Source of the DNA: a virus
Lineage: Duplodnaviria; Heunggongvirae; Uroviricota; Caudoviricetes
Length of the DNA stretch: 59,084 nt
IMG/VR virus record: IMGVR_UViG_2703718809_000006
Direction: 5' to 3' (one strand)
This document shows positions 33,097 through 52,162 of this stretch, piece after piece; position 1 is the stretch's first letter; every line of letters starts with the position of its first letter. Both the position numbers and the translations under genes were made by a program. The notes below the pieces were generated by a model. That model made no database searches and was not told the origin of the DNA. It was given only the letters and a program-made list of their open reading frames with translations.

Positions 33097-34137
33097 ATGA
33101 TGAATATTAAGCCGCTGAAAATTAGGAACAAGGTCATGAAGCCTCATAAAGCATCATTAAACCCTGACCTAACCGCAAGGAATGTACTTACATACAGTCA
33201 TTGGGATTTTGTCGAACTCTGGTTAAAGCGAAACGAAAAAGATGAGGCTCTTTTTTATTGGGAGCAAGCAAAAGTATTTAATCAGGCGGCCAATGGTTTA
33301 CCCAACCAATCAGCCCCACTTTTGCACTATTATTCATTCATGAATGCAGTAAAGGCGTTACTTTCATCTCGCAATATAAACTTCAAACAGCATCATGGTG
33401 TTGCTAGGGGTGAAAATGCAGCCCAAATTGATAACTTATCTGATATAAAAGTAAAAATAAAAAATGAGGGTATACTTCCGTCTTTTTCAAAATATATTGA
33501 CGGCACCTCTCATGAGGGGGTGTACAATATAAAAAACCTTTTTTCTGGATTGCCATATATTCATCGTACATATTGCCTTACTTATGATGTAACTGATGAT
33601 ATATTTATTCCACTGATCGATGCTGAGTTCGTTTTGAATGAGTCAGACAATAGCCTGTTTTTCACTGCGATTTTATCCAAGGATTTTCGGTTCGACACAG
33701 TTTTCGACATTCTACCGCCAGCGTTCGAATTGTTTGAAAGAGAAAAGTACAAAATAAAATCAGTAGAATCATTACTTGATTTTAATGAAAATCAATCGTC
33801 CAACATGCCGCAATTAACTGAATTTCATCAAAAAATAAGAAGAAATCTTTACTATATCAATGGCGCAGAGACTCTTTGGTATCTCAAACGTAAAAACAAT
33901 CAATCTGAGCATACTTCTGTTTCAATATCGCCATTGGTTATAACCCTAGCAGCTATGCATCGATTAAGTGAGCTATGTCGGTATGACCCACTTAAGCTAA
34001 GACAGTTACTAAATGAAAAAGAAAACTGGATTATTGCTGAATTTATTCAACAATCTCCGTCACAGTTTATAGATGCAATTTCATCTGAAATTACTGGACA
34101 CCAATTTCTTATCCCAAACGTAAGGTCTGCTTCTTAA
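33097..34137 (+). CDS. Unknown 346-aa protein, first gene of the AT-rich cassette (candidate defence component)
   Basis: AT-rich coding sequence unlike its flanks; GGTGGAGG 8 nt upstream of ATGATG; only an R-x6-H (RNINFKQH) motif noted. Confidence 0.6.
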   Translation: MMNIKPLKIRNKVMKPHKASLNPDLTARNVLTYSHWDFVELWLKRNEKDEALFYWEQAKVFNQAANGLPNQSAPLLHYYSFMNAVKALLSSRNINFKQHHGVARGENAAQIDNLSDIKVKIKNEGILPSFSKYIDGTSHEGVYNIKNLFSGLPYIHRTYCLTYDVTDDIFIPLIDAEFVLNESDNSLFFTAILSKDFRFDTVFDILPPAFELFEREKYKIKSVESLLDFNENQSSNMPQLTEFHQKIRRNLYYINGAETLWYLKRKNNQSEHTSVSISPLVITLAAMHRLSELCRYDPLKLRQLLNEKENWIIAEFIQQSPSQFIDAISSEITGHQFLIPNVRSAS

Positions 34138-34646
34138 TGAATATATATATCGCATGCGCTTTAACTCATGTTCCAAGGGAAATTTTCCATGAGTACAGTA
34201 ATTGGATTCACAGCCTTGCAAAAGGTTTATCTCAAAATAACAACGTAAAATATGCTTTGATAAATAGTGACCCAGAATTATCAAAGCGCCCTGAAAGTAA
34301 CAAATCTAGACTTTGTTACATTTGGGACAGAGATATGGTTGAGAAATCTGATGTAATAATTGCAGAATGTAGTTTTCCATCAACAGGGCTAGGAATAGAG
34401 TTGCAGATTGCTGAACAGAAGAACATTCCTGTAATCATCTGTTATAAAGATTATGGGATAAATAAAACTAAAACCATTGAATACGTGAATCCAGATGAGA
34501 CTACCCATAATCTACAAGTTGGCGAGGGTTTCATTTCTCATATGGTATTAGGACTACCAAACATCCTTGATGTCATATTATGTAAAGATATTGATAACAC
34601 ATGCAGGAAGCTAAAAATACTGTTAGATATGATTAACCATAATTAA
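34137..34646 (+). CDS. Nucleoside 2-deoxyribosyltransferase / DNPH1(Rcl)-like protein, second gene of the cassette
   Basis: TAATG coupling to the upstream ORF; '...DVIIAECSFPSTGLGIELQIAEQKNIPVIICY' matches the catalytic-Glu core of the NDT/DNPH1 fold. Confidence 0.6.
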   Translation: MNIYIACALTHVPREIFHEYSNWIHSLAKGLSQNNNVKYALINSDPELSKRPESNKSRLCYIWDRDMVEKSDVIIAECSFPSTGLGIELQIAEQKNIPVIICYKDYGINKTKTIEYVNPDETTHNLQVGEGFISHMVLGLPNILDVILCKDIDNTCRKLKILLDMINHN

Positions 34647-45832: not shown

Positions 45833-45965
45833 AAAGACCTCATAAGCGAATTTTTTACGCTCCAGGACAAACACCCATTCACAGCCAATACCGACTGACT
45901 CGATCCCTTTAGAAGGCACAGGATAATGCAAATCACTTGTTAGCTACGTTTCAAAGATATACATT

Positions 45966-45982
45966 ATTGCTCTAATTAATTT
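45966..45982 (+). promoter_or_regulatory. C1-operator-like 17-mer upstream of ssb
   Basis: ATTGCTCTAATTAATTT (16/17). Confidence 0.5.
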
Positions 45983-46001
45983 ATTTTATTAGGTAAGATA
46001 A

Positions 46002-46490
46002 GTGGCACAACGCGGTGTAAACAAAGTCATCCTGATTGGTACCCTGGGGCAAGACCCGGAGATCAGGTATATACCAAATGGCGGAGCGGTCGGAAGACTC
46101 AGCATCGCAACGAATGAATCATGGCGCGACAAGCAAACGGGCCAACAGAAAGAGCAAACAGAATGGCATAGAGTCGTTTTGTTCGGGAAACTTGCTGAAA
46201 TTGCGAGTGAGTATTTACGAAAAGGTTCTCAGGTCTACATCGAAGGGAAACTTAAAACCCGTAAGTGGACAGATGACGCCGGTGTAGAACGTTACACGAC
46301 GGAAATTATCGTCAGCCAGGGCGGAACTATGCAAATGATCGGCGCCCGCCGCGACGATTCACAGTCCTCAAATGGCTGGGGGCAATCAAACCAACCTCAA
46401 AACCACCAGCAATACAGCGGTGGCGGCAAACCTCAGAGCAGCGCCAATAACGAACCTCCAATGGACTTTGACGACGATATTCCGTTTTAG
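46002..46490 (+). CDS. ssb: Single-stranded DNA-binding protein
   Basis: GTG start; OB-fold core near-identical to E. coli SSB; acidic tail 'MDFDDDIPF'. Confidence 0.92.
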
Positions 46491-46738
46491 AGTTAACTTG
46501 TGAGTTATTTGTAAATAGTTCATACACAGGCCCATGTTAATACAGGGGATTTTTATTTCTAGTAACTATAAGAGGTGTTAATTATTAATTGACAATCTTT
46601 AGTGTTTCGCGCACCTTGCAAGTATCCAATATTTACTGATTGTGGACGCATAAAGAAGATCCACAGCGTTACAAATTTGTATTTCTTTCTTCAGCAATTA
46701 AGCAGGCGACTTGCTCTATCCTGCCCAAAGGAACACGT

Positions 46739-48094
46739 ATGACACACTGCAAAGAAAATACTTGGTATGAGCGTCAAGGGTACAATACCACCCGCCCGAA
46801 TGAGATAAGGTCGGAGTATGAACGTGATCTTTCCCGGTTAATCCACTCTTCCGCTTTTAGGAGATTACAATCGAAGACGCAGGTGTTGGGATTGGGCGAA
46901 AGCGATTTCTACCGTACGCGGCTAACTCACTCTATGGAAGTAGCGCAAATTGGCGGCGGTATCTTGTCTCAGTTGTCTAAGCGCGATACAGATGAGGGGG
47001 GTAAATTCTTACCTGACCCAAGCCTGATGCAGGCTATCTGCCTTGCTCATGATATAGGACATCCCCCCTTCGGTCATGGTGGTGAGGTCGCACTAAACTA
47101 CTGCATGAGATCCTATGGCGGCTTTGAAGGTAACGGGCAGACACTGCGTATACTCTCCAAACTGGATAAGTACACCGAAACCAATGGGCTGGATCCCACC
47201 CGTAGACTTATTTTAGGCGTACTGAAATATCCAGCAAGCTATTCAGAGGTCGTCAATGAGAGGGCTTACAGCCAGTTACAGCCAAGAAGCAATGAGTGGT
47301 TGTTTAAATCATCCGAATTTAAGCCCCCGAAATGTTACCTGGACTCTGAGGAGAACACTGTTAGATTCGCACTCCAACCTTTTGATAGTGATGATGTTAA
47401 GTTATTCAAAACGGTAAAAACTACCGCGTTGAATAAGCACAAGGAAACAATATATAAAGCACTGGATACAACGATTATGGACTTGGCTGATGAGATATCC
47501 TACTCACTCCATGATCTTGAAGACGCAATTTCTCTGAAGATGATCGACAAAAAAATGTGGGAGGAGCACTTCGAGGACAAATCCCATTTATTTGCAGCTT
47601 GCCAATGCGACTCGTTTAATCTAAAAGCCGATGATGTAGCTGAAAAACTGTTCGGCGAAAGTTATCTACGCAAGGAGTGCATAGGGACACTTGTTCATCT
47701 GATGATCACTAGCGTTAAGCTTGAAGTGCAGAACTCTGATTTCAAAAGTAAAATTTTACGCTATAAAGTAGCACTTCCTGCCGCGGTAGAAGAGTTACGT
47801 AAAGCCATTTTTGAGCTGGTTAGGAACAAAGTTATTCAGCACGAAAACGTCCAACTATTAGAGTTCAAAGGTCAGAAACTGATTGTGGAACTATTCAATG
47901 TACTGGCAAATGACCCAATACGTTTTCTCCCGACAGAAACTCGAAAGAAATATAATCAAGAGGAAGCAAAAGGTGATGATAAAAAAATGCGCGTCATTTG
48001 CGACTATGTTTCAGGCATGACAGATGATTACGCTACTCGACTGTATGAGAAAATATTTGTACCGAGAAAAGGCTCTATTTTTGATAGACTCTGA
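46739..48094 (+). CDS. Dgt-family dNTP triphosphohydrolase (dGTPase-like, HD domain)
   Basis: 'FRRLQSKTQV...RTRLTHSMEVAQIG' and 'HDIGHPPFGH' match the Dgt N-terminal/HD motifs; AAGGA 7 nt upstream of the ATG; AT-rich. Confidence 0.8.
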   Translation: MTHCKENTWYERQGYNTTRPNEIRSEYERDLSRLIHSSAFRRLQSKTQVLGLGESDFYRTRLTHSMEVAQIGGGILSQLSKRDTDEGGKFLPDPSLMQAICLAHDIGHPPFGHGGEVALNYCMRSYGGFEGNGQTLRILSKLDKYTETNGLDPTRRLILGVLKYPASYSEVVNERAYSQLQPRSNEWLFKSSEFKPPKCYLDSEENTVRFALQPFDSDDVKLFKTVKTTALNKHKETIYKALDTTIMDLADEISYSLHDLEDAISLKMIDKKMWEEHFEDKSHLFAACQCDSFNLKADDVAEKLFGESYLRKECIGTLVHLMITSVKLEVQNSDFKSKILRYKVALPAAVEELRKAIFELVRNKVIQHENVQLLEFKGQKLIVELFNVLANDPIRFLPTETRKKYNQEEAKGDDKKMRVICDYVSGMTDDYATRLYEKIFVPRKGSIFDRL

Positions 48095-48258
48095 TTTTTT
48101 TCTATTATATAGTACGTAGCCGGGTTCCAGAACCGCATAAAATTAGATCTGGATATAATTCATTTAATTATCTGTTATATGCCAAACATAACGATATATA
48201 ATAGTGGATTAGATGTTACAACTTGACGCAGAATAAATAGCTTTTATTGGCGCATGAT

Positions 48259-48286
48259 GCAAACCCCGCAATGAAGCGGGGTTTTA
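48259..48286. terminator. Bidirectional rho-independent terminator between convergent genes
   Basis: AAACCCCGC-aatgaa-GCGGGGTTTT. Confidence 0.65.
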
Positions 48287-48301
48287 ACTGTGGTAAATGA
48301 G

Positions 48302-48670
48302 TTATAATCTTTTAATCAGGCTCTCAATATTAGTTGGTTCAAAGTAATGCTTATTAACCTCTCCATTTATGAGGAAACCGTCTTTTAGTAGTCGGTCTAG
48401 CTCACGCTCTGCTTCTTTGTTGAACATACCTGGATATATTCTCTTGTACAACTGAAACGTACCATTCATATTCCTGTAAGCATTCTCAGCAATTTCAATG
48501 GAGATTTCATTTCCGGCGTTAAATACAGGAATGAATATCTCAAGAATATCATTCTTTAACTTCTGTTTAAGTTTCTTTTTTTCAACAATATTAGAATAAA
48601 AGATACCTAAAAAAAATGTGCAGATACCAGGAAGCCAATTATTAACGAAAACCTCAGACAAAGCGTCCAC
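48302..48670 (-). CDS. AT-rich hypothetical protein with N-terminal hydrophobic segment
   Basis: 122-aa ORF convergent with the dGTPase-like gene. Confidence 0.45.
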   Translation of the reverse strand: MDALSEVFVNNWLPGICTFFLGIFYSNIVEKKKLKQKLKNDILEIFIPVFNAGNEISIEIAENAYRNMNGTFQLYKRIYPGMFNKEAERELDRLLKDGFLINGEVNKHYFEPTNIESLIKRL

Positions 48671-48876
48671 TATCTTACTCCAGAGTTAAGATTGATTCTC
48701 ATAACGCACAAACTCCGTTCAAGGCGATTTTTATATTACAAACTATACATAAACGCTGATCAATATCTCCAGATTTTGTGTGCCTGTGCATGAATATGCA
48801 CTAATCATAATCGACCAGAACTTCCGTTAATCGCTAAACTCGAACGATTCTAGCCACATAGACGATCTGTTAGTAT

Positions 48877-49185
48877 CTAATATACAAACTGATCCACATG
48901 ATCACCCAAATCATCGTCGTCGTCCTCATCGCCACCATCTACTGCTGGCCAATCAACAAACCAGCCAGCGTAAAGATGCAGCGTTCGGAGAACATCACTT
49001 GCGGGAGCATCAAGGGTGTTAACGAATCCCATATAGCTATTGGGATTTGCTCCAGCTATGGCTTCAGCGATCATGTCCTCGGTAATGTCACCGGAGATAA
49101 TGCTTAAACGCCCGGAAACTTCTTCATTATCATCAAATTCGATAATGGCATCTCCACCTAATGGCGCTGCGATTTTAATCTGCAT
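48877..49185 (-). CDS. Acidic hypothetical protein (P1 hxr position)
   Basis: 102-aa ORF with a poly-Asp tail, downstream of the ddrB-like gene. Confidence 0.4.
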   Translation of the reverse strand: MQIKIAAPLGGDAIIEFDDNEEVSGRLSIISGDITEDMIAEAIAGANPNSYMGFVNTLDAPASDVLRTLHLYAGWFVDWPAVDGGDEDDDDDLGDHVDQFVY

Positions 49186-52162
49186 TATTTAGCTCCTTTG
49201 CCACACCTAATAACAGTTCCAGCAATCCGTCACCATTCATCAGTGATGCGGCAGCGGCCTCTTTGTCATGATACAACTGAAGAGCCATAGAGAATACTTC
49301 CGTTGCTGACGTTTTGGAAATAGTCGGTGATTTCTGCCGAATTTTCCCGGTGTTACTTACTGAGGCTGGCGGGTATACCTTCGCCATATAAATATTACTC
49401 AATCGAGATCTGAAGCACCATTCAGGCTTGCCACGCCCACCGATATTGACGAAAGATGGCTTATCCCCTTCAACATTGGCCTTCAGGAATGACCGGGCTT
49501 TCTCTAACAAACCAGGGTTACTGTACTCAAGATGATGACCCAGCTCGTGCCACAGTGCACTTGCATTTTCATCGTTCAAATTGACAGCAACAACACCATT
49601 TAGATTTGCATATGCCCTTCCCTGGTGGTGAACTACCTTTGATAAGGTCGATATTTTCCCGCCGGTCAGGCGATAAATATCAGCAAGTTCCTTGCGCAGG
49701 TCTATCCCACCATTCTGTCCAGCGCGGGCTTCTTCCACTTCTTCTGTGATAAAAGAGTCGGCCCACTCAAGAGCTTTTTCTTCAGATACGGATGAGTTTG
49801 CGATCGCACTGTTCATGGCAGATAACACTTTCTCGTGGACCGAACCCATACTTCGCTGATTCATTTGCCAGCGTGTCTGCGGGTTATATGAGAATCGCTT
49901 AAGTAGTTGGTCAAGCTGCTCAAGTTCTTCTTCACTGACATACTTTTTAGCCTCACCAATAATGCCAGGGAGAATATTGCCGTTAGGATTAAACGCTCGC
50001 GAAAGGAAGAGTTTCAGCGCCCCCATGCCCTCCGATGCTTCAATATCACCAATAACCCGGTTAACAATGGCCGCACTCTTCGGATTAGCATCCGCCAACG
50101 CTCTGGCTACGATTTGCAGGGACGATACGACCTCACGCTGCATATCAGTCCTGATCTCATCAATAAACTCTGGCGTTATGCCGTGCTCTTTAAGGATATC
50201 CCGGCCTTCCGCCGTTACCCCATAGATATCACCGACATGTTTATTAACACGACTTTGCAATGCCTTAAATGCCTTCAGAATTCCACGGGCATCATCCGCT
50301 TTACTAACGGCCTTCCTGAATGCTGGCAAGAAGTCTGAGTTAACCTCATTTTGTTGATCGGCCCACTGAATGGAGGCTTCTTTCATCTCGTCCAGAGTCA
50401 GATCACCCAACGCGGTATGGTCTGTGAATATGAGCGACAACCTCTGAACCATTTCTGCCAATGGTGATGCCGAATGCGCCGCGCTAAGGAATGCTTTCAC
50501 CCTGGTTGGGCGAATGGAAAACCAGTCAATAGCTGGTGGCATATCTCCGTTTTTTATCGCCTGCGCTATCTCGTCAAAGCCATCGCGCCCAAGGGAAGAT
50601 GCGTGATTTAACAAGCCGCGAAGTAACGAATTGCTGATACCGAATAATCGGCACCATTTTTTCACGTCGGCAACAGGCATTCGAACAAAATGCGCAAGCA
50701 CTTGAACAAGCTGTTCATCCTGGGGATCTGTACGGGAAAGCAGCCTGATCAGATGAATAATGTCTTTGATGCCGGATGCCCGATGTAATAGCAAGCTGGT
50801 ATATGGAGCAACACCGTTGTAACTACCGCCAGAAGCTGACTCGAAAAGACCGCCAGATATCCCTTGCATACCTTCGTTTTCCAGTTCCTGAGATACTTGG
50901 CGAAGGATATCCTGTAACGACACATCGCCGCCGCCAAACATATCCCCGAGCGCCTGGCCCTGGTGCTGTAACTCATCATTGATACGTTGCGCCATCAACT
51001 TAAAGGCGGTGGCCATACGCTTCGCGCTACGGTTATTCGCGACGATGAACAACGCGAGTGCTTTCACCTCCGGGGCCGTTTCGCTGAACATATCCCCCTG
51101 AGCAATAACATCGGTAATATGCTGGCCTGACTCCTTCGATTGCCTTACCAGGTCTACCGCATCTTTCAATGCCGCCAGCGCCTTTTTATCGAGGCTATCC
51201 GCTGTCTCAATGCCATCAACAATAGTTGTCACAGCCTGCTTGTGCGCTTCTCCTGATAAAGCCTGCATCTGGACAAAATCATTGGCTGCCGCATTAAGCG
51301 CCGTCAGAACATTACGCATATCCGGATCAGGTTCTTCTGCAACCATCCTTACCAGGCGCGCATCCTTATATGCCTTGGCAAAGATCGCGTTTTGTATACG
51401 GTCAACAAGTTGCCGTGTTGGTCGCCCATCTTCAGTTACAAGGCCAGCCGCCTGTGTGGCACCAACTTGCGTCATAAATCCGCGAATAAACGCGTCATTA
51501 CTGCGGCTAAGCAGATCTCCGCTTTCTGACGGGTTAAAAAGCGCCATCATCGCCGGTGTTATGCTGTCGGCATCAACAAAAGCCTTTTCACTGGCTGCCA
51601 TTTCCTGGAGATCAGAAATATTTGAGTCCTTGGCAAACTGAACACGGTCAACCGTCGTTAACCGGCGGCGCACCAGTACCGGAGCCGTCATTGATTCAAC
51701 CTTTTCAGGCCGTATGCCGAATTCGGTCGCATGTTCAATCAGGTACTCCCGATACCGATCCGCATTACCGTCCTGATAGGCTTTAATGATCCCCATGGTC
51801 CGCCCATTACCTGACTCAACGGCATTGTCCTCACCAATTATTGGCGCGCCATGGCTGGATAAACCGGAATCGGTAAGCTGGGCAGGACGCAAATCCTTGG
51901 ATATCTGGTTGACCTGAAGAAGGCTGGATGCGCGGGTCCGGTCGCGCGGCTGAAGTTCCTGGGGATAGTCTGGATTAATTTTCCCATCCAGAGTATTGGA
52001 TACCAAAAGAGCTGAGGCATCGACGATATCAAACGCTGTTTTTACCTCGTCTCCCTTCGCTGTCACCACATACGAAACCCGCCCATAATCGGGCAGGTTC
52101 TTTAGCAGCTCGATCAGCGTTTCTATGCTGGTGGCCATTACCACCTGATCGCTTAAGCTCAT
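49175..52162 (-). CDS. ddrB: Large darA-operon protein (DdrB-like)
   Basis: 995-aa ORF downstream of darA on the same strand; assigned by position only. Confidence 0.5.
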   Translation of the reverse strand: MSLSDQVVMATSIETLIELLKNLPDYGRVSYVVTAKGDEVKTAFDIVDASALLVSNTLDGKINPDYPQELQPRDRTRASSLLQVNQISKDLRPAQLTDSGLSSHGAPIIGEDNAVESGNGRTMGIIKAYQDGNADRYREYLIEHATEFGIRPEKVESMTAPVLVRRRLTTVDRVQFAKDSNISDLQEMAASEKAFVDADSITPAMMALFNPSESGDLLSRSNDAFIRGFMTQVGATQAAGLVTEDGRPTRQLVDRIQNAIFAKAYKDARLVRMVAEEPDPDMRNVLTALNAAANDFVQMQALSGEAHKQAVTTIVDGIETADSLDKKALAALKDAVDLVRQSKESGQHITDVIAQGDMFSETAPEVKALALFIVANNRSAKRMATAFKLMAQRINDELQHQGQALGDMFGGGDVSLQDILRQVSQELENEGMQGISGGLFESASGGSYNGVAPYTSLLLHRASGIKDIIHLIRLLSRTDPQDEQLVQVLAHFVRMPVADVKKWCRLFGISNSLLRGLLNHASSLGRDGFDEIAQAIKNGDMPPAIDWFSIRPTRVKAFLSAAHSASPLAEMVQRLSLIFTDHTALGDLTLDEMKEASIQWADQQNEVNSDFLPAFRKAVSKADDARGILKAFKALQSRVNKHVGDIYGVTAEGRDILKEHGITPEFIDEIRTDMQREVVSSLQIVARALADANPKSAAIVNRVIGDIEASEGMGALKLFLSRAFNPNGNILPGIIGEAKKYVSEEELEQLDQLLKRFSYNPQTRWQMNQRSMGSVHEKVLSAMNSAIANSSVSEEKALEWADSFITEEVEEARAGQNGGIDLRKELADIYRLTGGKISTLSKVVHHQGRAYANLNGVVAVNLNDENASALWHELGHHLEYSNPGLLEKARSFLKANVEGDKPSFVNIGGRGKPEWCFRSRLSNIYMAKVYPPASVSNTGKIRQKSPTISKTSATEVFSMALQLYHDKEAAAASLMNGDGLLELLLGVAKELNNAD

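Follow-up and report, generated by a model that had tools for sequence, protein, structure and literature searches.

Gene content and flanks of the ssb-hxr interval

The window, by which we mean the whole stretch of 59,084 nucleotides analysed here, contains between ssb and hxr of a P1-like phage-plasmid an interval (46491-48876) that runs exactly from the stop codon of the one gene to the stop codon of the other. This island contains an intact gene for a 451-aa HD-domain dGTPase (46739-48094, + strand) and a convergent 122-aa open reading frame, here called orf122 (48302-48670, - strand), both of which had been placed correctly in an earlier, sequence-only reading of this DNA. On the left lies a P1-type ssb gene (46002-46490, + strand; Pfam SSB, 3.6e-40; 97.8% identical to P1 ssb), with the C1 operator Ossb upstream of it (45966-45982). 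On the right lies hxr (48877-49185, - strand; 97.6% identical to P1 and named after the P1 annotation), and next to it ddrB (49175-52162), which belongs to the dar operon. These flanks are 97-98% identical to P1, P7 and SJ46 as far as the stop codon of ssb (46488-46490) and again from the hxr stop codon (48877), so that the right-hand junction between the island and the P1 backbone falls exactly at the latter; nothing in P1, P7 or SJ46 matches between the two stop codons.

The sequence-only reading had described the island as AT-rich. Its G+C content is indeed 39.7%, whereas the window averages 47.9%; this places it in the 2nd percentile of 2386-bp windows, but the composition is not even: the 5′ half of the dGTPase gene has 47.6% G+C, its 3′ half 39.3%, and orf122 33.6%. 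Only chance-size matches of 12-15 nt were found as repeats at the island ends, and the search of the island for RNA families returned only a chance-level GIR1 match (16.9 bits, where the gathering score is 100). Eleven C1 operators occur elsewhere in the window and none inside the island.

The interval is the site at which the sequence-only reading had placed the IS1 region of P1, and the P1 annotation does show isaA-IS1-isaB between ssb and hxr. That region and the nmpC porin region of P7 occupy the same slot, are similar in size (1.7-2.7 kb) and are non-essential; their gene content is wholly different from that of the window, which has no IS1. SJ46 likewise holds other cargo here. By CRISPRi, all P1 genes of the interval are non-essential, as is hxr itself (PMC10695390). 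The island was found in 64 of the 479 E. coli genomes with a P1-like hxr-ddrB flank and in one of 20 matching phage records. In P1-like elements, the slot between ssb and hxr is accessory and its cargo exchangeable.

A dGTPase of the anti-phage clade

The dGTPase gene starts with ATG at 46739, and its homologues begin with MTHSKE or MTRSKE. Ahead of it, positions 46681-46738 (+ strand) hold a 5′ untranslated region with the ribosome-binding site AAGGA (46728-46732); this region shares about 77-79% identity with the one ahead of a chromosomal E. coli dGTPase gene. The protein is identical to WP_000148486.1, which RefSeq names "anti-phage deoxyguanosine triphosphatase". The three Dgt/HD motifs that had been quoted from the translation are present, at residues 40, 59 and 104. 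NCBIfam NF041026 matches over its full length (1-425/425) with 571.4 bits (cut-off 400), NF003701 with 562.2 bits (cut-off 383) and the PADLOC dGTPase model with 1.7e-148. Pfam finds an HD domain (4.5e-08) and a C-terminal HD_assoc domain (6.6e-21), and the protein accordingly has the architecture of the anti-phage family, an HD domain with a C-terminal HD-associated domain in about 440-460 aa. In contrast, the E. coli Dgt model (NF003429) reaches 142.8 bits against a cut-off of 405, and, among the matches listed, the plain dGTPase and deoxyguanosinetriphosphate triphosphohydrolase models (housekeeping equivalogs) all remain below their cut-offs.

How close is this protein to enzymes of established function? 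Residues 19-451 align end to end with the Sp-dGTPase of Shewanella putrefaciens CN-32 (PDB 9P8W; Tal et al. 2022) at 59% identity (E 3e-158), which is above the limit of at least 45% identity over at least 90% of the length by which Tal et al. (2022) defined their set associated with defence islands. The two proteins share architecture, length and catalytic HD and H/E residues: of the key residues H64, the HD motif H104-D105 and the catalytic dyad H113/E116, residues H104-D105, H113 and E116 align with H100-D101, H109 and E112 of Sp-dGTPase, in which the D101A substitution abolishes defence. The protein is also 80% identical to the chromosomal E. coli protein WP_001514832.1 (dN/dS 0.12), which is in turn 98.5% identical, over the 133 residues available, to the validated enzyme of E. 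coli G177. Like this Ec-dGTPase and the other members of the family that PADLOC and DefenseFinder list as 'dGTPase', the window protein is encoded by a lone gene within a variable or defence region of a mobile element. When a closer donor was sought, the best species-representative match was that of Yersinia vastinensis, at 80% equal to the E. coli chromosomal homologue. The characterised anti-phage dGTPases lie in chromosomal defence islands, whereas the copy in the window is carried by a P1-like phage-plasmid.

The likeness to the housekeeping enzyme is much more limited. E. coli Dgt (NF003429/PRK04926; PDB 4X9E) belongs to the same HD-domain superfamily and presumably has the same chemistry, but only residues 13-124 of the window protein, its N-terminal ~110, align with it (E 6e-24). 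Moreover, Dgt is a core chromosomal gene product of ~505 aa, whereas the 451-aa protein is accessory and plasmid-borne. Judged by its sequence, then, the gene encodes a dNTP triphosphohydrolase of the Dgt superfamily that groups with the anti-phage clade and not with housekeeping Dgt; NF041026, PADLOC and the identity to Sp-dGTPase agree in this, as the sequence-only reading had proposed. A position among housekeeping Dgt proteins and conservation of the region in all P1-like genomes would each have told against that proposal, and neither was found, because the protein falls in the anti-phage clade and the content of the slot is not conserved among P1-like genomes.

We considered whether the enzyme might instead serve the physiology of the phage-plasmid, by balancing or sanitising dNTP pools or by tuning plasmid or lytic replication or the mutation rate. 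The gene lies directly downstream of the replication-associated ssb on the same strand, and E. coli Dgt has a role in genome integrity (Tal et al. 2022). Such a role is nevertheless very improbable: the protein fails the housekeeping models as described above, the gene is missing from 87% of P1-like elements, it was imported on an island family whose other cargos are Avs4/AbiGi, and its slot is non-essential.

The gene is therefore not a new system but ordinary cargo, a defence gene already catalogued; a 2025 preprint counts dGTPase among the defences commonly found on P1-like phage-plasmids of E. coli. The cassette at 33.1-34.6 kb had been thought to supply the element with a second candidate aimed at the nucleotide pool. 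It encodes a YaaC-like protein and a match to nucleoside 2-deoxyribosyltransferases that is below threshold (22 bits, cut-off 28.8), and PADLOC gave no match to it; that idea is not established.

orf122 and the spacers around it

The second gene, orf122 (WP_000339558.1), encodes a small, helical protein and lies on the strand of hxr and the dar operon; it starts with GTG at 48670, with GGAG ahead of the start. A dN/dS of 0.08 marks it as a real gene under purifying selection. It has no match in Pfam, NCBIfam or PADLOC and only an unknown-function family in PHROGs, and a profile search of 1.84 billion representatives gathered 14 members and no remote relatives. Its N-terminal helix, with a Kyte-Doolittle peak of 1.39 (below the usual 1.6), is a possible membrane anchor. 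The contexts of its homologues vary, from integrative elements, a Mu-like phage region and a Rep3 plasmid to an Mrr/HNH island and a locus with a 5′-nucleotidase neighbour, and no shared partner emerged among their neighbours.

Between the two genes lies an AT-rich spacer (48095-48198) that has no blastn match in E. coli genomes outside the island and none to the comparison locus L015, and a G+C-rich hairpin, AAACCCCGC-AATGAA-GCGGGGTTT (48261-48284), which lies 17 nt past the orf122 stop codon and 167 nt past that of the dGTPase gene. The sequence-only reading had taken this structure for a bidirectional terminator. The hairpin is stable on both strands (9 bp; dG -21 and -18 kcal/mol; z -3.4 and -3.3), but its U runs are short (four on the + strand, three on the - strand), the consensus terminator scan reported none at this position, and it belongs to a module (48199-48726) that is conserved with chromosomal orf122 loci. 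It is plausible that the hairpin terminates orf122 and the leftward dar/hxr transcription, and it possibly acts in both directions. Upstream of orf122, the spacer that abuts the hxr stop codon (48671-48876, - strand) contains one promoter-like site (48771 to 48742) with a consensus of only 9/12, and no relatives of the spacer sequence were found beyond 48726-48730.

The 122-aa protein had also been suggested as a partner of the dGTPase, and a two-gene system, in which orf122 would be a sensor, regulator or membrane effector, has some attraction. The genes are adjacent, they travel together at at least 99% identity in at least 52 plasmids, orf122 is under selection, and partners are known from some dNTPase defences. 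In Clover, a Pol-beta-type nucleotidyltransferase (CloB) encoded next to the dGTPase CloA regulates the dNTPase; Clover and the octameric Vdg-type dGTPases are, like the enzyme discussed here, nucleotide-depleting defence effectors, although the window protein resembles CloA (E 2e-24) and Vdg-type chains (E 1e-44) far less than Sp-dGTPase, and its sole neighbour, orf122, has no domain match. Several observations speak against the pairing. First, the two genes are convergent with a hairpin between them. Second, the two are never seen together elsewhere: among 80 dGTPase loci of other species, no orf122 homologue occurs within 6 kb, and no dGTPase occurs at any of 17 orf122-homologue loci. Third, each gene has chromosomal homologues of its own in unlike contexts, and the two derive from different source modules. 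Fourth, the validated dGTPase relatives act alone as single genes. Clonal inheritance of a single island accounts for the joint travel. We consequently give the two-gene system little credence; on the sequence evidence, orf122 appears to be an accessory gene independent of the dGTPase. As a rare, conserved family without known relatives, it might itself be a new single-gene exclusion or defence factor, a smaller possibility.

A probable remnant of a GInt-type island at ssb

How did the dGTPase gene reach this position? A new point of this analysis is that the left 190 nt of the island appear, from their similarity to intact elements, to form the left end of a GInt-type island that targets ssb and has lost its recombinase genes by deletion. 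The first part (46489-46561, + strand), an attL-side end with a weak hairpin that folds no better than shuffled sequences (z -0.05), is 88.7% identical to sequence found just after the ssb stop codon. Several hundred E. coli chromosomes carry a relative of it (as many as 357 records at 80-90% identity), as do an F-like and a P1-like plasmid, and every time tyrosine recombinases follow it. The second part (46562-46680, + strand) is a degenerate version of the region upstream of ginA followed by ~30 nt of the ginA 5′ end; window positions 46438-46680 are 69.8% identical to L015 positions 11225-11467, and the ginA start codon has been mutated from ATG to ATA (46650-46652). Near 46680, the residue-level alignment switches to dGTPase upstream sequence, and this marks the junction of an internal deletion.

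The attachment site used by the island is formed by the last codons of ssb (ATTCCGTTTTAG). The stop codon of the window gene is TAG, as in ssb genes occupied by GInts, whereas P1, SJ46 and K-12 have TGA. Intact elements on a chromosome, on an F-like plasmid, where the element follows ssb, and on a P1-like plasmid have exactly this junction at the stop codon of ssb; in the last of these (NZ_CP090337), the intact element lies at the same P1 ssb junction with attL CCGTTTTAG and attR CCGTTCTGA. The att core agrees with the published ...CCGTTCT, and insertion at the end of ssb is a known preference of GInts (PMC5385486). Among the genes of the intact relatives, gene 1 matches Phage_integrase (8.8e-17) and gene 2 matches NF041502 (8e-193), while genes 3 and 4 have no matches, which would be consistent with GinC and GinD. 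Acquisition by homologous recombination anywhere in ssb was rejected, since the junction falls on the stop codon, where GInts integrate site-specifically.

Compared with the GInt islands of Bardaji et al. (2017; PMC5385486), the window shares the left-end sequence and ginA leader of intact elements, with the cargo downstream, and shows a site-specific insertion at the ssb 3′ end, where attL overlaps the gene. It differs in that the ginABCD operon expected at the 5′ end (three tyrosine-recombinase-like genes and the small ginD) is deleted except for ~30 nt, in that the imperfect direct repeat (attR) and the AT-rich 3′ end are missing, and in that the ssb is the paralogue of a phage-plasmid rather than the chromosomal gene. 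Neither an attR-like CCsTTyTrr on the + strand nor any similarity to a GInt right end was found in 48095-48876. Because ginABCD is deleted and attR was not found, the island is regarded as an immobile remnant.

The remnant state raises the question of whether the dGTPase gene is simply a silent hitch-hiker, intact but not usefully expressed and kept because the island is recent. No convincing sigma-70 promoter was found upstream of the gene by a consensus scan, which weakens the case for expression in the lysogen; the island is the product of a decayed mobile element; and the island copies are 99.1-100% identical, so that selection on the gene within the lineage is not measurable. In phage vB_EcoM-673R5, furthermore, the gene is annotated as two CDS, which suggests that it is dispensable for phage survival. 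Against this, the gene is full length in nearly all of at least 64 copies, PGAP annotates it as intact, the former ginA operon leader has been kept and GInt transcription is reported to continue into the cargo (PMC5385486), and active defences are common in such slots of P1-like elements (2025 preprint). We consider a silent relic unlikely, if marginally less so than the two alternatives discussed above.

Proposed model and implications

Taken together, the most probable explanation, in which we place good confidence, is that the interval serves a P1-like phage-plasmid as a slot for accessory cargo and now contains a single-gene anti-phage dGTPase, left behind by a decayed GInt island, and the unrelated orf122. 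The sporadic, horizontally transferred distribution expected of an anti-phage dGTPase is seen here in its low frequency, the alternative cargos of the slot and its delivery as GInt cargo. In this model, the gene would have arrived as cargo of a GInt-type island that integrated site-specifically at the ssb stop codon; later, a deletion would have removed the ginABCD recombinase operon and most of the cargo, fusing the former ginA leader to the dGTPase gene and, with the recombinases lost, fixing the copy in place. A dGTPase of the Sp-dGTPase/Ec-dGTPase clade would be made in the lysogen, and its HD-domain metal centre would split dGTP into deoxyguanosine and triphosphate. Upon infection by a foreign lytic phage, dGTP would be exhausted and phage DNA synthesis would stall, protecting the host population and the resident prophage with it. 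The independently mobile orf122, which closes the leftward dar/hxr transcription unit at its 3′ end, would not be required by the dGTPase. For lysogen expression, enzymatic activity, defence phenotype and trigger, we infer from characterised relatives; as a counterpoint, two of the six dGTPases that Tal et al. cloned did not protect. The model also raises the question of how P1 replicates lytically while encoding a dGTP-depleting enzyme.

For the dGTPase itself, these results add no new biology, since the gene is catalogued and the element type has already been reported as a carrier. Their use lies in correction: the enzyme is not a housekeeping Dgt, it has no partner, and its slot is exchangeable. 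A by-product is that a GInt-type island appears to recognise the conserved 3′ end of ssb wherever ssb occurs. We see an even chance that the ssb paralogues of P1-like phage-plasmids and F-like plasmids act as GInt landing pads, such that one island family would carry defence genes (dGTPase, Avs4/AbiGi) back and forth among chromosomes, conjugative plasmids and a transducing phage, and that the window holds a domesticated island in which the recombinases are gone and the ginA leader drives the dGTPase gene. If confirmed, this would provide a concrete route by which defence genes move among chromosomes, conjugative plasmids and phage-plasmids.

The ssb-hxr interval of a P1-like phage-plasmid

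We identify the window as a P1-like phage-plasmid (genus Punavirus), because it contains pro, lyz, ssb, hxr, ddrB and darB together with 11 sites within 7094-45982 that match the P1 C1 operator consensus ATTGCTCTAATAAATTT with at most 3 mismatches, where 0.23 would be expected. The island considered here (46491-48876) lies between the stop codons of ssb (46002-46490, + strand) and hxr (48877-49185, - strand). In a megablast search of 45900-49300 against phage records, P1, P7, SJ46 and others were 97-98% identical to 45900-46488 and 48878-49300 only; the backbone identity to these phages ends at the ssb stop codon and resumes from the hxr stop codon. A single phage record, that of vB_EcoM-673R5, covered the whole query, at 99.8%. 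In that record (ON470615.2; L001, 3839-5192), the dGTPase gene of the island is split into a pair of annotated CDS, of 288 and 990 nt, the result of a frameshift or else of a sequencing error.

The ssb-hxr interval contains isaA-IS1-isaB in P1, the porin gene nmpC in P7 and a hypothetical gene with isaA in SJ46, and ssb, isaA, insAB, isaB, hxr and ddrB were found by CRISPRi mapping to be non-essential in P1 (PMC10695390). For these reasons, the sequence-only reading was correct to place the island in the IS1-associated variable region of P1. The full-length 2386-bp island occurs at an identity of at least 99% in 52 PLSDB plasmids from E. coli, E. albertii, E. fergusonii and one Cronobacter. 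Of 5426 complete E. coli genomes, 64 contain it, virtually always on a plasmid of ~95 kb, and the hxr-ddrB backbone is found in 479 genomes; therefore, about 13% of E. coli P1-like elements bear the island, which is a variable locus, as had been proposed, rather than fixed backbone. In plasmid pTET-GZEC065 (NZ_CP048027; L107, 5195-5892), and also in NZ_CP083586, IS1 lies directly upstream of the start of orf122, the second gene of the island, and hxr and the dar genes have been lost. IS1 therefore also strikes the AT-rich slot of dGTPase-bearing elements, as in P1.

Both ORFs of the island, a 451-aa dGTPase gene (46739-48094, +) and the 122-aa orf122 (48302-48670, -), were confirmed at the coordinates first reported, and the three Dgt/HD motifs quoted for the former are all present in its translation. 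The dGTPase starts at ATG 46739, six bases 3′ of AAGGA, a start shared by its homologues (MTHSKE/MTRSKE) and by PGAP; orf122 starts at GTG 48670, preceded by GGAG. The description as AT-rich holds for the island as a whole (39.7% GC, in the 2nd percentile among equal-sized windows, vs a window mean of 47.9%), but not for the 5′ half of the dGTPase gene (47.6%). The hairpin at 48261-48284, previously read as a bidirectional terminator, is strong whichever strand is folded (z about -3.4 and -3.3). Its U tracts are short, however, and it was not called by a consensus scan. Taken as a whole, the observation was confirmed.

A dGTPase of the antiphage type

The dGTPase contains the Pfam domains HD and HD_assoc, and its proposed class, a Dgt-family enzyme of the antiphage type, proved right. 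First, the NCBIfam profile NF041026 ('anti-phage deoxyguanosine triphosphatase') was covered over its whole length at 571 bits vs a cut-off of 400. Second, the housekeeping dGTPase equivalogs of NCBIfam all fell under their own cut-offs (E. coli Dgt, 143 vs 405). Third, the PADLOC dGTPase model matched the protein at 1.7e-148. The closest solved structure is 9P8W (E 3e-158, 59% identity end to end), that of the Shewanella putrefaciens enzyme (Sp-dGTPase), which is the reference defensive dGTPase and whose homologues of at least 45% identity preferentially adjoin defence systems (Tal et al.). Residue D101 of Sp-dGTPase, at which the D101A substitution abolishes protection (Tal et al.), aligns with D105 of the window protein, and H113/E116 align with the H/E dyad of CloA, a related enzyme. 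A chromosomal E. coli protein, WP_001514832.1, is 80% identical to the window dGTPase and, in the 133-residue stretch given in the supplement of Tal et al., 98.5% identical to their validated E. coli G177 dGTPase; dN/dS for the P1-borne gene against the chromosomal one is 0.12.

Two other classes were ruled out: Clover, in which CloA has a nucleotidyltransferase partner, whereas the window dGTPase has no such neighbour and matches the CloA chains only at E 2e-24; and the octameric Vdg class, with a match of E 1e-44 vs E 3e-158 for 9P8W. The identical RefSeq protein, WP_000148486.1, is already named 'anti-phage deoxyguanosine triphosphatase', and E. coli P1-like elements commonly bear CapRel or dGTPase systems (2025 phage-plasmid preprint, 10.1101/2025.09.12.675607). 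This defence gene had thus been catalogued before, and dGTPase had been reported from elements of this type; we found no report in the literature of an experimental test of this particular enzyme.

By homology, the dGTPase would hydrolyse dGTP to deoxyguanosine and triphosphate, and superinfecting phages would be starved of dGTP as a result. During T7 infection, Sp-dGTPase removes dGTP and produces deoxyguanosine, and the mutations by which T7 escapes lie in gp5.7 and gp0.7, modifiers of the host RNA polymerase (Tal et al.). The ssb gene is under the C1 operator Ossb (45966-45982), one of the 11 matches, and none of these matches lies in either low-GC cargo island of the window, which is consistent with dGTPase expression being independent of prophage repression. 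No convincing promoter was found upstream of the dGTPase gene.

The other low-GC island comprises two overlapping genes between mat and lxc (33097-34646, +), the lowest-GC stretch of the window (38.6%), in a slot occupied by res/mod in P1 and by a RelA/SpoT gene in SJ46 and 673R5. The 346-aa product is YaaC-like (PF14175, 5.9e-46), the 169-aa product has a sub-threshold nucleoside 2-deoxyribosyltransferase match (22 bits vs 28.8), neither has a PADLOC match, and no phage record of the collection carries the cassette. The suggestion of a second nucleotide-targeting cassette is therefore unproven; these genes are possibly an uncharacterised two-gene defence cargo.

orf122 as an independent accessory gene

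The product of orf122 (WP_000339558.1, hypothetical in RefSeq) has no match in Pfam, NCBIfam or PADLOC, belongs only to a family of unknown function in PHROGs, and has an N-terminal helix of only moderate hydrophobicity. It has 34 homologues in a large protein collection, with a sharp conserved core, KLKQKLKNDILEIFIPVFN.G, common to Escherichia, Yersinia, Vibrio, Marinomonas and Rheinheimera; an exhaustive profile search yielded 14 cluster representatives in total and no distant relatives. Because dN/dS against its chromosomal relative is 0.08, orf122 is a real gene. Its homologues occupy varied sites: islands that carry an integrase and lie close to restriction-modification genes, a position next to a 1589-aa helicase, a Mu-like region in which the homologue lies 3′ of a polyvalent-protein gene, a Rep3 plasmid and a position next to Mrr/HNH genes. 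In Marinomonas sp. BSi20584 (L020, 5889-7396), the homologue lies directly 3′ of a 5′-nucleotidase (PF06189) gene on the same strand, the sole nucleotide-related neighbour among the contexts examined.

The earlier idea that orf122 is a partner of the dGTPase is wrong: in other species, 80 dGTPase loci were covered and no orf122 homologue lay within 6 kb of any of them, and none of the orf122-homologue loci examined had a dGTPase. Across E. coli genomes, the island splits into separately conserved pieces with different sets of relatives, one being the dGTPase with 58 nt upstream and the other the orf122 module with the hairpin (48199-48726). Because hxr, the dar operon and orf122 are all encoded on one strand, orf122 is more aptly called the final gene of the leftward unit than a 'convergent partner', and we conclude that it is an independent accessory gene.

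Probable origin of the dGTPase from an ssb-targeting genomic island

Where might the dGTPase have come from? Immediately 3′ of the ssb stop codon, the window has 71 nt that are 88.7% identical to sequence directly 3′ of ssb in some E. coli chromosomes (the 80-90% identity band contained up to 357 records, every sampled row being the 71-nt match), in which it leads into two tyrosine recombinases; it is absent from K-12 and P1. In E. coli 1332KP, an 18-kb island begins exactly at the ssb stop codon, after which the K-12 sequence TTTGTCATTAAAAC resumes. It encodes integrases of 415 and 519 aa, hypothetical proteins of 677 and 139 aa and cargo, the last gene being the 80%-identical dGTPase. Both this ginABCD-plus-cargo architecture, with the third and fourth genes as putative ginC and ginD, and the insertion at the end of ssb match the published GInt islands, which prefer this site; their attL overlaps the gene, and their att core ends in CCGTTCT (PMC5385486). 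Next to the dGTPase in the 1332KP cargo (L015, 22452-26628), a cluster of PfkB kinase, 7-cyano-7-deazaguanine synthase and nitroreductase genes also holds an 8-oxoguanine glycosylase and a Dam-like methylase, which suggests a module of DNA modification or defence linked to guanine or deazaguanine.

Positions 46438-46680 of the window align with the left end of the 1332KP island and extend ~30 nt into its first integrase gene, the start codon of which has become ATA in the window (46650-46652). Because the alignment jumps 15.6 kb at ~46680, from this left end to the region upstream of the 1332KP dGTPase, and continues to the stop codon of that gene, the window bears an internally deleted GInt; no right end (attR) is recognisable in it. 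The retained ginA leader is a candidate promoter region for the dGTPase, because transcription of the gin operon in GInts reportedly extends into the cargo (PMC5385486). Because the junction lies at the stop codon, site-specific integration into P1 ssb is favoured as the route of acquisition over general recombination within ssb.

Abutting the hxr stop codon in P1 (L017, 3727-3743) and P7 (L104, ~2762-2778) is a 17-nt match to the chromosomal GInt right end TTTCCACTATCAGGTAA, a motif absent from the window. This match (94%; E 0.04, from a search of small size) may be due to chance, but it is a hint of possible older GInt relics beside hxr in both phages.

Intact elements of the family are found on plasmids. 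In the P1-like plasmid NZ_CP090337, one occupies the identical ssb junction between clean repeats, in the order attL CCGTTTTAG, ginABCD-like genes, Avs4 and AbiGi, and attR CCGTTCTGA, with the ancestral P1 sequence ATGTGTAAAAAACG immediately after it. In the F-like plasmid NZ_CP133918, an intact GInt-like island lies directly at the stop codon of the plasmid's own ssb. Both encode two integrases, then 677-aa and 139-aa proteins, with Avs4 and AbiGi as cargo. The GInt-derived origin, which was absent from the sequence-only reading, and this evidence that the island family uses the ssb genes of phage-plasmids and conjugative plasmids are the only parts that might merit follow-up.
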